A DNA stretch of 64,000 nt from Candidatus Micrarchaeia archaeon (GCA_038874215.1 JAVZCV010000002.1:32001-96000); one strand, 5' to 3'; shown: positions 2,666 through 21,968, counted from the first letter of the stretch. The notes: generated by a model from the sequence alone, not told the origin. Numbers and translations: made by a program.

Positions 2666-3622
2666 CTAACTATCCGCTCTTATATTTAAAATTCTCCCCC
2701 TATCACTTTTTTTATCCCTGCATAAAAGAACAACCCTGCTTGGCTCATATTCCGCAGATACGATATAGCCACACACCTCTGCAAGTTCTTTGGCGAAAGC
2801 TCTTATCTCGTCATGTGTTGGCATATTGTTGAGGCTGAGCCCCCTACGCGGGTCCCGAGCCCCGCCAACATACACGAAGCTCTTAACCTCAACATATTCT
2901 GGCAGTGCTTTCTCAATGAGCTTTGCGTAACCTGCGGCATCAAGCATGTTATGCCCTTTTACAAGCGTCATTCTCAGAACGCGGCGCGTTGGCATGCTGT
3001 TTAAAATCTCCAAAGTTTCGTTGAAATTCACCCATGCTCTCTGGTACTTAGGGGCGCAAATACGGCGATACACCTCCTCGTTTGGTGCGTTGAGGGAAAC
3101 ATAAAACTGGGTAGGCAGCCTTTCAAGTTCTGCAATTTGTTTGGGAAGCGTTCCGTTCGTAACCAAAAATGTTGTCATCCCCCTCCTCCAGAACTCCTCA
3201 ATCAATTCAGACATATGTGGGTAAAACATTACCTCCCCAGTAAGGCTTATTGCGGCATGCTTCGGGTTTTTAGCTTCCTCCCACATCCCTTTGCTAACCC
3301 TCTTATTCCCCCCATAACCCGATACTATCCTAAGATGTTCTGCAATAATCCATTCAACAACATCAGCAGCTTCATCCCATTTAGCAGGGAGGTTCTCTTT
3401 TTCATCGGGCATAATCCGCCAGCAGAATATGCAACCCATGTTGCAGTATGTTGCAACAGGGGTGCACTGGATACATCGGTGGCTTTCTATCCCGTAAAAA
3501 GCATTCTTGTAGCACTTTTTCCCTTTGACAAGGGCATCGTGGAGCCATTTGCATCCCTTTACTGCGCTATGCCCGCCTGCGAAATGGTACTCTTGGTTTT
3601 TCATCCTCTCCATCAAACCCAT
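2666..3622 (-). CDS. taw1: 4-demethylwyosine synthase (radical SAM, TYW1/Taw1)
   Basis: HSAVKGCKW, CYK..FYGIESHRCIQCTP, CNMGCIFCWR and HAAISLTGE motifs; start could be ATG 3622, 3613 or 3604. Confidence 0.93.
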   Translation of the reverse strand: MGLMERMKNQEYHFAGGHSAVKGCKWLHDALVKGKKCYKNAFYGIESHRCIQCTPVATYCNMGCIFCWRIMPDEKENLPAKWDEAADVVEWIIAEHLRIVSGYGGNKRVSKGMWEEAKNPKHAAISLTGEVMFYPHMSELIEEFWRRGMTTFLVTNGTLPKQIAELERLPTQFYVSLNAPNEEVYRRICAPKYQRAWVNFNETLEILNSMPTRRVLRMTLVKGHNMLDAAGYAKLIEKALPEYVEVKSFVYVGGARDPRRGLSLNNMPTHDEIRAFAKELAEVCGYIVSAEYEPSRVVLLCRDKKSDRGRILNIRADS

Positions 3623-3655
3623 GCGTTTTTTATTTTTCACATCATATTTATAGGC

Positions 3656-4813
3656 ATGGCGGTCCAGCTTGAGGTTCATGGGAAAAAAATAATCGTGCGC
3701 GATCCCGCTTCTGTCTCTTCACTTCAAAAGGGTTTCTATGGTGTGATGCACAAAGGCGTAATCACCCTCTTCCCCGAGGAAGCCCTTTATCTCATAGATA
3801 TAAGGAATGCAAAATGCTACGATAAAAATGGGAACGCGCTAAAATTCAACGATGTTGCCCAAATTTTCAAAAAGAAGAAACTACTCGCCCGCTACTTCAC
3901 CTATAAAGATTGGCGCGACAGAGGGCTCATAGTTCGTCCTGTTGAAGAGGCTACGGGTAACTACGGGAGGAATCCTGTCAAAAAATATCCCATGCGCGAG
4001 TTTGAACCTCCAAAATACTCTGTTGATGGGGTCTTCTTCCCAGATGATCTTTTTACAATAATAGATGACGAAGTTGTCGGCAGAGAGCTGTATGAGAACT
4101 ACTGGCTTGGCCAGTTTGCCTCATACAAAGCAGAACAAAGGGGCAGAGTAGCGAAACTTGACGCCTACGAGACTCTTTTCATGCTGAGGCACTGCAACCT
4201 CTCCCTCCATAACTCTGATGAGGAGAAGGTTATCAAGAACGCTACAAAAAGAAGAAGCGATTTCATGCTGATGTACGAGGTTTATGAGGATTGGAGGCTT
4301 CGTGGCTATATACTAAAAACTGGTTTCAAGTTTGGCACGCACTTCAGGCTCTATATGCCAGGCGCATCACCAGTTAAAAAAGGCGACGAATGGATACACA
4401 GCAAGCATGTAATCCACATATTCCCGCGTTCCAAAAAAATGATAATCTCTGAATGGGCGAGAGCAATACGGGTTGCACACAGCGTAAAGAAGACTTTTAT
4501 ACTTGCGATACCAGGCGCGAAGAAGAAGCACAGTTTGAAGAAACCCGATTTTCTTCTTTATCATCGCCACAAAACAGGCATAGAGACCCCAGATACAGGA
4601 AAGCCGAAGTTTCTCATGCTATCCCTAAGCGAAGAGGAGTACATAGGGGGTGAAGAACTCGCAGATGCTATAGAAATCGCAAAGAGCTTTGGGCTTGACC
4701 TAATGCTCGCAATAGCGGATAGGGAAAGCTCTGTTACTTACTATCGTGTAAGAAGGATAGAGTTGCAGGGCAGCAAATACGAATATTACGAGATAGAATG
4801 GGAGCAACCATAA
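3656..4813 (+). CDS. endA: tRNA-intron endonuclease, ~385 aa, three-unit (epsilon2/ARMAN-like) type
   Basis: EEALYL and YKDWRDRG unit; second unit VYEDWRLRGYILKTGFKFGTHFRLY...HSKH...RVAHSVKK; C-terminal PDF...SVTYY unit; ATG at 3656. Confidence 0.92.
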   Translation: MAVQLEVHGKKIIVRDPASVSSLQKGFYGVMHKGVITLFPEEALYLIDIRNAKCYDKNGNALKFNDVAQIFKKKKLLARYFTYKDWRDRGLIVRPVEEATGNYGRNPVKKYPMREFEPPKYSVDGVFFPDDLFTIIDDEVVGRELYENYWLGQFASYKAEQRGRVAKLDAYETLFMLRHCNLSLHNSDEEKVIKNATKRRSDFMLMYEVYEDWRLRGYILKTGFKFGTHFRLYMPGASPVKKGDEWIHSKHVIHIFPRSKKMIISEWARAIRVAHSVKKTFILAIPGAKKKHSLKKPDFLLYHRHKTGIETPDTGKPKFLMLSLSEEEYIGGEELADAIEIAKSFGLDLMLAIADRESSVTYYRVRRIELQGSKYEYYEIEWEQP

Positions 4814-20091: not shown

Positions 20092-20397
20092 TCACTTGTA
20101 ACCAAATCGCCTTTTTGCTCCACATTCACACACATACTCAACAACCCCTCTGCGAGGTAAGAGTCTAACACTCGCATTATAGCCTGGGATCAAAAAGGCA
20201 TTACACTTTTTGCACAATCGCCTTTTTATCGTTTTCGGAATTCTGACGTTATACCTCCTCTCTATTTTTCTTGCCAGTTCAACATAGCGTTTGCTTCTCT
20301 TTGGGTTCGTTTTGGCGTTTTCTTTGGCAAGGGAGCAGAGTATGGCGATCCTCTCCTTTGCAATCGCCTTAACAATCGTCCGCCTGTTCGCCCCCAC
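20092..20397 (-). CDS. rnp4: Ribonuclease P protein component 4 (Rpp21)
   Basis: IAKERIAIL, RYVELARKI, CKKC...LIPG and CECG; start moved to GTG 20397 because the longer ORF runs into the tRNA. Confidence 0.92.
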   Translation of the reverse strand: MGANRRTIVKAIAKERIAILCSLAKENAKTNPKRSKRYVELARKIERRYNVRIPKTIKRRLCKKCNAFLIPGYNASVRLLPRRGVVEYVCECGAKRRFGYK

Positions 20398-20428
20398 TTC
20401 TACTCCCTTGTCTACGTAAAAGCAAACA

Positions 20429-20576
20429 TGGGCCCGGAGGGATTTCCGCAACCTTCATTCGAACCCTCGACCTACAGCTGTCGCAAGCGCATGTGCTAGA
20501 GTGCGCCATATAAGACATGCGTACCGAAAGGCAAGGCATTTCGGTATGCCGCTCTAGCCAGCTGAGCTACGGGCCC
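20429..20576 (-). tRNA. tRNA-Ile(UAU) with three introns: 29/30 (20517-20546), 37/38 (20480-20508), 59/60 (20443-20457)
   Basis: Removing 30+29+15 nt gives a 74-nt cloverleaf GGGCCCG-TA-GCTC-AGCTGGCTA-GAGC-G-GCAGT-CT-TAT-AA-GCTGT-AGGTC-GAGGG-TTCGAAT-CCCTC-CGGGCCC-A; each junction forms a BHB-like motif; CCA not encoded. Confidence 0.88.
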
Positions 20577-20600
20577 ATATCTTTTCTAATTAAAATAAAA

Positions 20601-20606
20601 TTATAA
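20601..20606 (-). promoter_or_regulatory. Probable TATA box of the tRNA-Ile gene
   Basis: TTATAA 25-30 nt upstream of the tRNA 5' end in an AT-rich spacer. Confidence 0.55.
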
Positions 20607-20663
20607 GCGCATCGGTTGTTCTAATACCTAAATCGTTTTATTTCTCACATTCGGAGCTGCTTT

Positions 20664-21968
20664 ATGGACCTTGGGCAAAGTCTCAGGAATGCACTTGCAA
20701 AAATAACGGGCGCAGCGCTTGTAGACGAAAAAGCAGTGAATTCCCTTGTCAAGGAGCTCCAAAGGCTTCTAATAAGCGCCGATGTAAGCGTATCGCTTGT
20801 TTTTGAGCTTTCGGAGAGAATACGCAGGCGCGCCCTTTCCGAGCAGATACCCCCAAGCATATCCCGCAAGGAGCACATAGTTCGTGTCGTGTATGATGAG
20901 CTCGTTTCTCTTATGGGCGAGAAATACGAGTGCAGGCTTGGGCCGCAAAAAATACTTGTAGTGGGATTATATGGGAGCGGCAAGACAACGACATGCGGGA
21001 AGCTTGCGAACTTCTATAAATCCCGCGGTCTTTCAGTCCTTCTTGTATGTGCTGATGTATCAAGACCCGCAGCCTACGAACAGCTTAAACAGCTCGCAGA
21101 AAAATGCGGGGTAGCGTTCTATGGCGAAAAGGAAAATACCAACGCGACTCACATAGTCCGAAATGCGCTCAGTGTTGCAAATCAGGACGTTATAATAGTG
21201 GATTCATCTGGAAGAAACGCGATTGAAGATGAGCTCGCAAAAGAGCTGCGTGAAATAGGCGATGTACTAAAACCAGACGAGTGTTTCCTCGTTGTCAGCG
21301 CTGATATTGGACAGGTTGCAGCAAAGCAGGCAAAGGCATTCAATGCTGCCGTTGGAATAACGGGCGTAATCGTTACAAAGATGGATGGCAGCGCAAAAGG
21401 GGGGGGCGCTCTAAGTGCTGTTGCCGCAAGCGGCTCAAAAATAGCGTTCATGGGAACGGGCGAAAAAATCTCAGATATTGAGGTTTTCGACGCTAAAAAA
21501 TATGTAGGCAGGCTTCTCGGTTTCCCTGATATAGAAGCGCTGCTTGAGCGTGTGAAGGAGGCTTCAAAAGAGTTAGACGAAAGCATGCTTGAAGAGAAGT
21601 TCACTCTAAACACTTTCTACAAGCAAATGAAAGCGGCAAAGAGCATGGGACCGCTAAAGAATATCTTCTCAATGCTTGGTTTATCAGACCTGCCAGAAGA
21701 AGTCTTATCACAGAGTGAGGAGAAACTTAGAAAGTACGAGAGCATAATACTGTCAATGACTCCCGAGGAGCGTGAGAATGCCCTTCTTGTAAAGAAGAGC
21801 AGGAGCAGAATTGAAAGAATAGCAAAGGGTTCGGGCAGGAGTGTTGATGACGTAAAGGCTCTGCTCCAGGAATTTGAAAGAATTGAAAAAATGCTAAATG
21901 CGATTAAGAAGAACAGAGGGATGAGGCGGAAGTTTGAGAAAATGCTCGGGACGAAACTCGGTGGTTGA
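20664..21968 (+). CDS. srp54: Signal recognition particle protein Srp54
   Basis: GLYGSGKTTT, RPAAYEQL and TKMDG motifs; M domain with SMTPEER..RIAKGSG. Confidence 0.96.
   Translation: MDLGQSLRNALAKITGAALVDEKAVNSLVKELQRLLISADVSVSLVFELSERIRRRALSEQIPPSISRKEHIVRVVYDELVSLMGEKYECRLGPQKILVVGLYGSGKTTTCGKLANFYKSRGLSVLLVCADVSRPAAYEQLKQLAEKCGVAFYGEKENTNATHIVRNALSVANQDVIIVDSSGRNAIEDELAKELREIGDVLKPDECFLVVSADIGQVAAKQAKAFNAAVGITGVIVTKMDGSAKGGGALSAVAASGSKIAFMGTGEKISDIEVFDAKKYVGRLLGFPDIEALLERVKEASKELDESMLEEKFTLNTFYKQMKAAKSMGPLKNIFSMLGLSDLPEEVLSQSEEKLRKYESIILSMTPEERENALLVKKSRSRIERIAKGSGRSVDDVKALLQEFERIEKMLNAIKKNRGMRRKFEKMLGTKLGG

Follow-up and report, generated by a model that had tools for sequence, protein, structure and literature searches.

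The window, i.e. the whole stretch of 64,000 nucleotides that was analysed, belongs to a metagenome-assembled genome (MAG) of the Micrarchaeota (DPANN), which has a size of 1.13 Mb in 38 contigs, an estimated completeness of 91%, and a G+C content of 45%. The only sequencing run that matched the stretch was a DNA run of a hot-springs metagenome. Upstream of the gene for SRP54, the product of which is 58–63% identical to proteins of MAGs titled Micrarchaeota or "ainarchaeum", the minus strand contains a pre-tRNA gene of 148 nt, with the 5′ end at position 20576 and the discriminator A73 at position 20429. The gene begins with the acceptor strand GGGCCCG and a normal D arm; its 3′ end comprises one strand of the T stem, the complement of the acceptor strand, and A73. 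Between these 5′ and 3′ parts it contains 74 extra bases. A preliminary description of the locus had given exactly these coordinates and had left the strand unstated. ARAGORN did not detect any tRNA gene in the unspliced window, and no Rfam family matched the window at its gathering score. With E-values of up to 10, three matches were obtained for the region 20300–20720, which were non-tRNA matches at chance level.

The gene was spliced in silico by removing the pre-tRNA positions 31–60, 69–97, and 120–134 (introns 1 to 3 in Table 1). The product of 74 nt forms the full cloverleaf of a class I tRNA and was identified by ARAGORN as tRNA-Ile(tat). It has an acceptor stem of 7 bp, a D stem of 4 bp, an anticodon stem of 5 bp, the T-loop TTCGAAT, and A73, and it contains the two wobble pairs G27·U43 and U31·G39. 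The energy of the cloverleaf is −32.2 kcal/mol, compared to −34.7 kcal/mol for the minimum free energy (MFE) fold of the spliced product. The anticodon loop is CUUAUAA. Its position 38 is an A rather than the U located immediately 3′ of A37 in the DNA, because the BHB geometry and the orthologues (see below) place intron 2 at the canonical position 37/38. The preliminary description had proposed a tRNA with three introns, the anticodon TAT, A73, and both wobble pairs; all of these were recovered in the spliced product, and position 38 had to be corrected to A. The acceptor stem and the D arm are close to those of the tRNA-Ile(GAU) of the same genome (C1:112034–112108), and a BLAST search of the genome did not reveal a second copy of tRNA-Ile(UAU). 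Taken together, it was confirmed that the stretch is a genuine tRNA-Ile(UAU) gene, which is broken by three short introns and is predicted to read AUA.

Table 1. Features of the tRNA-Ile(UAU) gene and its surroundings, and the gene of the tRNA splicing endonuclease, in window coordinates.
Feature	Position	Strand	Remarks
tRNA splicing endonuclease, three-unit epsilon2 type, 385 aa	3656..4813	+	Pfam and PDB match
T-rich tail, possible terminator	20418..20428	-	directly after A73; predicted from sequence
Whole pre-tRNA-Ile(UAU) gene	20429..20576	-	148 nt; CCA not encoded; spliced product is tRNA-Ile(tat) (ARAGORN)
Exon 4, positions 60–73	20429..20442	-	U60, T stem 3′ strand, acceptor 3′ strand, A73
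Intron 3, 15 nt, T-loop 59/60 by BHB geometry	20443..20457	-	relaxed hBH motif
Exon 3, positions 38–59	20458..20479	-	A38, anticodon stem 3′ strand, variable loop AGGUC, T stem 5′ strand, T-loop to 59
Intron 2, 29 nt, canonical 37/38	20480..20508	-	hBHBh′, one H mismatch
Exon 2, positions 30–37	20509..20516	-	anticodon UAU at 20510–20512; identical GU-CUUAUA string in orthologues
Intron 1, 30 nt, position 29/30 in anticodon stem	20517..20546	-	relaxed BHB; found only in this genome
Exon 1, tRNA positions 1–29	20547..20576	-	acceptor 5′ strand, D arm, position 26, positions 27–29; BLAST matches to relatives end exactly at pre-position 30
A/T-rich upstream stretch, possible archaeal TATA box	20586..20607	-	TTATAA at −30 to −25 from mature 5′ end; predicted from sequence

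Putative transcription signals flank the gene on both sides (Table 1), and a TTTATA motif is present at a similar distance upstream of several tRNA genes of the relative G019. A scan for bacterial-type promoters was not applicable to an archaeon, and the sole terminator-like match was the hairpin of intron 1. Directly downstream, on the same strand as the tRNA, the gene of the RNase P subunit Rpr2/Rpp21 is located (20092–20451, minus strand, Pfam E-value 9.8e-18). The ORF as called begins with a TTG at 20451 and thereby shares 23 nt with the 3′ end of the tRNA gene, and an in-frame GTG at 20395–20397 is a more plausible start codon.

Intron motifs and orthologues in related genomes

An archaeal BHB motif consists of a 4-bp helix H between two 3-nt bulges, each of which is cut after its second base. 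This standard geometry was used to set the intron borders, and the rule agrees with the motif names used by Fujishima et al. (2011, PMC3239211). Intron 2 is contained in a BHB motif with three of four pairs in H (U33 faces a C), a helix h, six pairs in h′, and the bulges UA^U and AC^A (^ denotes the cut). At intron 3 all four H pairs can form (TTCG with CGGA, including one wobble pair), whereby T54–G57 pair with the intron. The T stem acts as the outer helix h. The 3′ bulge reads AA^U, and a helix h′ is lacking. The junctions 57/58 to 60/61 of this intron all yield an identical mature sequence. The motif of intron 1 has three of four H pairs, three pairs in h, at least six pairs in h′, and the bulges CA^U and AU^G. 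In this case position 26 contributes to helix H together with the 3′ strand of the D stem, and a long hairpin forms the inner part of the motif. The local MFE fold favors a register that is three bases off and would lead to a wrong junction, and the productive fold requires that the D stem opens. The predicted borders of intron 1 are uncertain when only the motif geometry is considered, and they rest mainly on the orthologues.

To compare the gene with orthologues, a set of 40 relatives of the same order or class was used, resulting in 41 genomes together with the genome of the window (G000). A BLAST search with the gene yielded paired matches in the relatives that skipped exactly the pre-tRNA positions 31–60. 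In addition, a search pattern was used in which the D arm and CTTATA were separated by six free bases. It had one match each in 32 of the 40 relatives, compared to no match of the reversed control pattern in the 41 genomes. The pattern had no match in G000 itself, because it is interrupted by intron 1. Judged from this distribution of sequence matches, the gene is no chance match.

Orthologues could be resolved in 30 of the 32 pattern-positive relatives, and G022 and G024 were left out. In all 30 orthologues exons 1 and 2 are contiguous, without an intron at 29/30, and the anticodon loop is CUUAUA-A. A canonical intron of 27–61 nt is present in 28 of them, with four of four H pairs in 26 cases and three of four in 2 cases. 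The orthologues of G037 and G032 have no intron at all and were directly identified as tRNA-Ile(tat) by ARAGORN. The T arm is uninterrupted in 13 orthologues and contains an insertion in the other 17. In its intron mode ARAGORN labelled many orthologues as Ser(tga), Ala(tgc), and others, which was due to a misplaced canonical intron, and the BHB geometry was preferred. Synteny was observed in two MAG records titled Candidatus Micrarchaeota archaeon, in which the orthologue is located upstream of SRP54, as in the window. The comparison with the orthologues settles the predicted intron borders, and it indicates that, compared with the 30 relatives examined, the 29/30 intron is the only one specific to this genome. 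Paralogues of the three introns were not found elsewhere in the genome with BLAST. Many further tRNA genes of this genome have two or three introns.

The first about 17 nt of the 37/38 intron (window 20492–20508) are conserved in most Micrarchaeia orthologues (L003, L006–L018, L302–L317). This conserved 5′ half is complementary to the 3′ strand of the D stem and position 26, with a variation between C and U opposite a G. The z-scores of the duplex between D arm and intron ranged from +1.6 to −2.5 in comparison to shuffled sequences, and were not convincing. As a weaker lead, the pairing of the conserved intron half with the D stem may hold the precursor in a form for an intron-dependent step.

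Conservation of the pair that closes the anticodon stem

The pair 31–39 was compared in the 30 relatives and was found to be U·G in 28 and U-A in 2 of them. At 27–43 a G·U pair is present in 26 relatives, G-C in 2, and A-U in 2, and the pair 29–41 alternates between A-U and G-C by double changes. The analysis was extended by a wider scan with the same unbiased D-arm/CTTATA pattern, which used one genome per species, was restricted to one D-arm type, and matched at least 120 loci. Among the matches listed, a canonical intron of the BHB type was present in 12 further genes, and 8 of these come from records with the titles Woesearchaeota, Pacearchaeota, or Iainarchaeum. These 12 copies from among the matches listed contain U31·G39 (10 copies) or U31-A39 (2 copies) and represent six further stem types. 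Three loci with an apparent insertion (L217, L220, L223), which were bacterial records or looked spurious, were left out of the archaeal count. Position 31 is always a U, and a C31 was found in none of the 43 archaeal copies, which include the gene of the window and the 12 from among the matches listed.

Furthermore, ARAGORN identified 106 intronless tRNA(tat) genes among the matches listed, mostly from Patescibacteria, Planctomycetota, Chloroflexota, and similar groups. Among these, the 31–39 pair is U-A in 36, G-C in 24, C-G in 19, U·G in 17, and another combination in 10 cases. As a comparison, 230 other tRNAs were inspected (192 from the matches listed, 10 from unrelated loci, and 28 of G019), and U·G at 31–39 was found in only 8 of them, and in none of the 28 of G019. 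A statement in the preliminary description, that some bacterial tRNA-Ile(UAU) contain U31-G39, is borne out by the 17 of 106 intronless and mostly bacterial genes versus 8 of 230 others among the matches listed. In this pattern-limited sample of sequences that are kin, U31·G39 is over-represented, but it is not universal. A literature search did not yield a mention of U31·G39 in tRNA-Ile(UAU), which is no proof of novelty. A search of the contig collection with a 14-base pattern yielded at least 120 chance matches in unrelated bacteria.

Ile-like genes with a CTTATA loop are common among the matches listed (L182–L301) in Patescibacteria/CPR, Saccharibacteria, Planctomycetota, Chloroflexota, and on a Streptomyces plasmid. 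The same listed matches also include Woesearchaeota, Pacearchaeota, Iainarchaeota, and Micrarchaeota. The distribution of U34-type AUA decoders may therefore be far wider than the few cases mentioned in the cited papers suggest.

The conservation pattern is compatible with, but does not demonstrate, the view of the preliminary description that a weak pair may aid the discrimination between AUA and AUG. Haloarchaeal Ile tRNAs bind AUG when they are mutated to U34 (PMC3895270). The chances are roughly even that U31·G39 and G27·U43 have no role in decoding, and that they were inherited from an ancestral DPANN tRNA-Ile(UAU) and are tolerated. The 30 relatives are kin and represent only four stem types, U31-A39 replaces the wobble pair in 2 of them and in 2 of the 12 other DPANN copies from among the matches listed, and most of the intronless tRNA(tat) genes among the matches listed (all but 17 of the 106, which are mostly bacterial) do without it. 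Moreover, a tRNA-Ile2(UAU) with an unmodified U34 has been described for Mycoplasma mobile, in which the avoidance of AUG was attributed to the ribosome and not to the tRNA (Taniguchi et al., 2013, PMC3575796). This tRNA resembles the present case in that UAU reads AUA without an enzyme that modifies C34, but it is bacterial and intronless. Against a neutral reading, U31 is constant in all 43 archaeal copies (12 of them from among the matches listed), although the pairs 27–43, 28–42, 29–41, and 30–40 vary across the 10 archaeal stem types, several of them by compensatory double changes. A single transition from U31 to C would strengthen the stem but was not observed in any copy, although G27·U43 was replaced by G-C in 2 of the 30 relatives. 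The rarity of the U·G pair in the 230 other tRNAs, which include those from among the matches listed, also argues against a neutral origin.

A more far-reaching alternative, that a weak pair closing the anticodon stem is a selected signature of U34 AUA readers, is put forward only tentatively and is rather doubtful at present. Its elements would be a constant U31, its partner G39 or, in fewer cases, A39, and the adjacent C32 and A38. If this were true, it would be common to DPANN archaea and a part of the CPR and other bacteria. The anticodon loop would then be tuned so that U34 pairs with A, and only poorly with G, and this would be an answer to the AUA/AUG problem that is partly independent of modification. 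The comparative result on U31 and U31·G39 may deserve a test at the bench.

Predicted AUA decoding and splicing of the precursor

The use of ATA was quantified in ORFs of at least 250 aa. ATA accounts for 693 of 1154 Ile codons in 37 ORFs of the window and for 12395 of 20778 Ile codons in 611 ORFs of the genome. With 60% of the Ile codons and 47 per 1000 codons it is the commonest Ile codon, and the frequent ATA codons that had been claimed for the coding sequences of the window could thus be verified. Such a high ATA usage is unusual for organisms that read AUA via a modified C34. A share of 60% of the Ile codons makes a dedicated AUA decoder indispensable.

A search for tiaS, which had been proposed in the preliminary description, was performed with one Pfam domain, TiaS_FLD (PF08489). 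The domain was not found in the genome of the window (91% complete), nor in any of the 41 genomes including the relatives, of which 26 are of high quality. As a control, PF08489 scored above the cut-off in four archaeal genomes. In a tRNA context, the anticodon CAU was found in the initiator tRNA (C2:27607–27714) and in the elongator tRNA-Met (C14:21279–21437), the latter by BLAST with the gene of G019. A third CAU tRNA, i.e. a tRNA-Ile(CAU), was not found among about 35 tRNA genes that were recognized by eye in this assembly of 38 contigs and 91% completeness. This inventory is partial, and it is based on a filtered scan list of 46 rows, about 33 of which were real genes by eye, plus the BLAST search with the elongator Met gene of G019. 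Other whole-genome scans for split tRNAs and CAU loops yielded mostly noise. It is conceivable that a tRNA-Ile(CAU) is encoded on missing DNA or contains unusual introns. In the relative G019, the genome of which consists of two contigs, CAU occurs in 2 of 42 RF00005 matches, alongside the UAU gene.

The preliminary description had regarded UAU as an exception among archaea, with Nanoarchaeum and Korarchaeum as examples. Surveys of cultivated archaea indeed reported UAU only for these two genomes of their sets (PMC6000648, PMC3895270), but the picture was incomplete, because ARMAN-2, -4, and -5 are also described to contain tRNA-Ile(UAU), and to lack tRNA-Ile(CAU) and TiaS (Fujishima et al., 2011, PMC3239211). 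With this ARMAN precedent, the UAU strategy is expected in the present genome and is not exceptional. Fujishima et al. compare the ARMAN strategy to that of eukaryotes (PMC3239211).

The genome also encodes candidate proteins for the removal of introns. The endonuclease that is encoded in the window (Table 1) contains two stretches of the Pfam domain tRNA_int_endo (E-value 1.9e-30) and a tRNA_int_endo_N domain. It matches PDB entry 4fz2_A over the full length (E-value 1.3e-138), with residues 5–385 aligned to residues 7–387, and 4FZ2 is cited in a paper on the ARMAN-2 EndA structure (PMC3488258). The listed ORF begins far upstream at 3137 with a TTG, and the ATG at 3656 is the likely start. 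A gene for RtcB was found at C11:2606–3910 (E-value 4.3e-177). At the gene level, a putative broad-specificity endonuclease (EndA) and an RNA ligase (RtcB) are therefore both present. The epsilon2 endonuclease is the enzyme that would be expected to cut all three introns. For the ARMAN-2 epsilon2 enzyme it has been reported that it cuts the 25-nt 37/38 intron of pre-tRNA-Ile(UAU), a strict hBHBh′ motif, as well as the 13-nt 59/60 intron of pre-tRNA-Cys, a relaxed hBH motif, in vitro (PMC3239211).

The best explanation for these results, to which a probability of about 0.9 is assigned, is that the locus is the single tRNA-Ile(UAU) gene, and thus the AUA reader, of a Micrarchaeota archaeon without the agmatidine system, i.e. 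TiaS and tRNA-Ile(CAU). A precursor of about 148 nt would be transcribed, and the epsilon2 endonuclease, which is encoded 16 kb away in the window, would cut out introns of 30, 29, and 15 nt at 29/30, 37/38, and 59/60, respectively. The four exons would be joined by RtcB, CCA would be added, and the tRNA of 74 nt would then be charged by IleRS. Judged from the sequence, the gene is probably expressed, its introns are probably cleaved at the predicted sites, and the tRNA is probably charged with Ile; U34 may carry a modification, and the tRNA would be expected to avoid AUG. If so, 4.7% of the codons rely on one gene, the transcript of which has to be cut six times and joined three times, and the precursor would be a demanding natural substrate for a broad-specificity epsilon2 endonuclease. 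In such genomes the AUA decoder is missed by standard tRNA finders, and its absence from the annotation could pass for a missing tRNA or a changed genetic code. Both this kind of tRNA and the enzyme have already been described for Micrarchaeota, and the gene itself is no discovery; the comparative conservation of U31·G39 seems modestly new.

It is very improbable that the locus is a decaying pseudogene, in which the 29/30 insertion and the imperfect BHB motifs block processing, so that AUA has to be read in another way. The occurrence of intron 1 in none of the 30 relatives, its three of four H pairs together with the MFE register that is off by three bases, and the H mismatch of intron 2, which is absent in 26 of 28 relatives, could be taken as signs of decay. 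However, ATA is the commonest Ile codon with 47 per 1000 codons, and no other UAU copy, third CAU tRNA, or TiaS was found in the searches described above. In addition, all stems are intact in the spliced product, many other tRNA genes of this genome have two or three introns, and cleavage of relaxed motifs by the epsilon2 enzyme has been demonstrated (PMC3239211). Least credible of all is an alternative anticodon stem of CAUGU (pre-tRNA positions 58–62) and ACAUG (83–87), which would retain the anticodon UAU without the U31·G39 wobble. In this case the loop would be followed by an intron of 13 nt, and additional introns would interrupt position 26/27 and the variable region. Although the precursor contains the 6-bp inverted repeat GCAUGU/ACAUGC, this stem was rejected, because the 13-nt intron does not fit a BHB motif (by hand, only 1 of 4 H pairs was found), ACAUG is located in the intron that is conserved in 28 of the 30 relatives, and all 30 orthologues use a stem of the type GCNGU/GCNGU beside the variable loop AGGUC.

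The tRNA-Ile(UAU) gene with three introns has counterparts in several known systems. Multiple-intron tRNA genes with non-canonical BHB introns occur in Thermoproteales, which have a heterotetrameric endonuclease. The present gene resembles such genes in having up to three introns of the protein-spliced type, in their positions in the anticodon stem and at T-loop position 59/60, and in the relaxed hBH motif. Unlike in Thermoproteales, the predicted enzyme is a single-chain epsilon2 endonuclease, and the affected isoacceptor is Ile(UAU). In eukaryotes, the wobble pseudouridine of tRNA-Ile(UAU) depends on the intron. The eukaryotic tRNA is likewise a U34-type AUA decoder with an intron next to the anticodon, and a pseudouridine is reported at its wobble position (PMC3895270). 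In contrast to the intron-dependent eukaryotic case, the intron has been lost in 2 of the 30 relatives of the present gene.

The closest similarity is to Candidatus Micrarchaeum acidiphilum ARMAN-2, with which the present genome shares the phylum, the anticodon, a 37/38 BHB intron, the epsilon2 endonuclease, the lack of a detected TiaS and, as far as the partial tRNA inventory goes, that of a tRNA-Ile(CAU) (PMC3239211). The ARMAN-2 gene is described with one strict intron of 25 nt, whereas the present gene has three introns, including one at 29/30, and an H mismatch in the canonical one. Nanoarchaeum equitans and Korarchaeum cryptofilum also use a U34 AUA decoder instead of an agmatidine-modified C34, and the Korarchaeum tRNA-Ile(UAU) gene is reported to contain an intron as well (PMC6000648). 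Both belong to other lineages than the present genome.

Some further observations were made on tRNA genes and RNA processing. Next to the endonuclease gene, the window encodes a radical-SAM protein with a wyosine base formation domain (TYW1/Taw1-like; 2666–3679, minus strand). The region C17:13082–13308 (plus strand), outside of the window, contains a tRNA-Thr(UGU) gene that is interrupted by a canonical intron. A second exact copy of its 3′ part, comprising the end of the anticodon stem, the T arm, and the acceptor strand, lies about 120 nt downstream and has no obvious adjacent 5′ half, and the arrangement may represent a split or duplicated tRNA. A tRNA-Lys(CUU) gene, 5.5 kb before the window (C2:26439–26527, minus strand), contains a T-loop intron of 14 nt with the same CGAAAA^T motif type as intron 3. 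Lastly, a hairpin formed by ACTTTTCT, a loop, and AGAAAAGT is present in four copies with the exact pattern (C1:160530, C14:2708, C14:7022, and C21:3812), and at least three of the copies are located within introns of different tRNA genes, namely Leu(CAA), Ala(UGC), and Trp.
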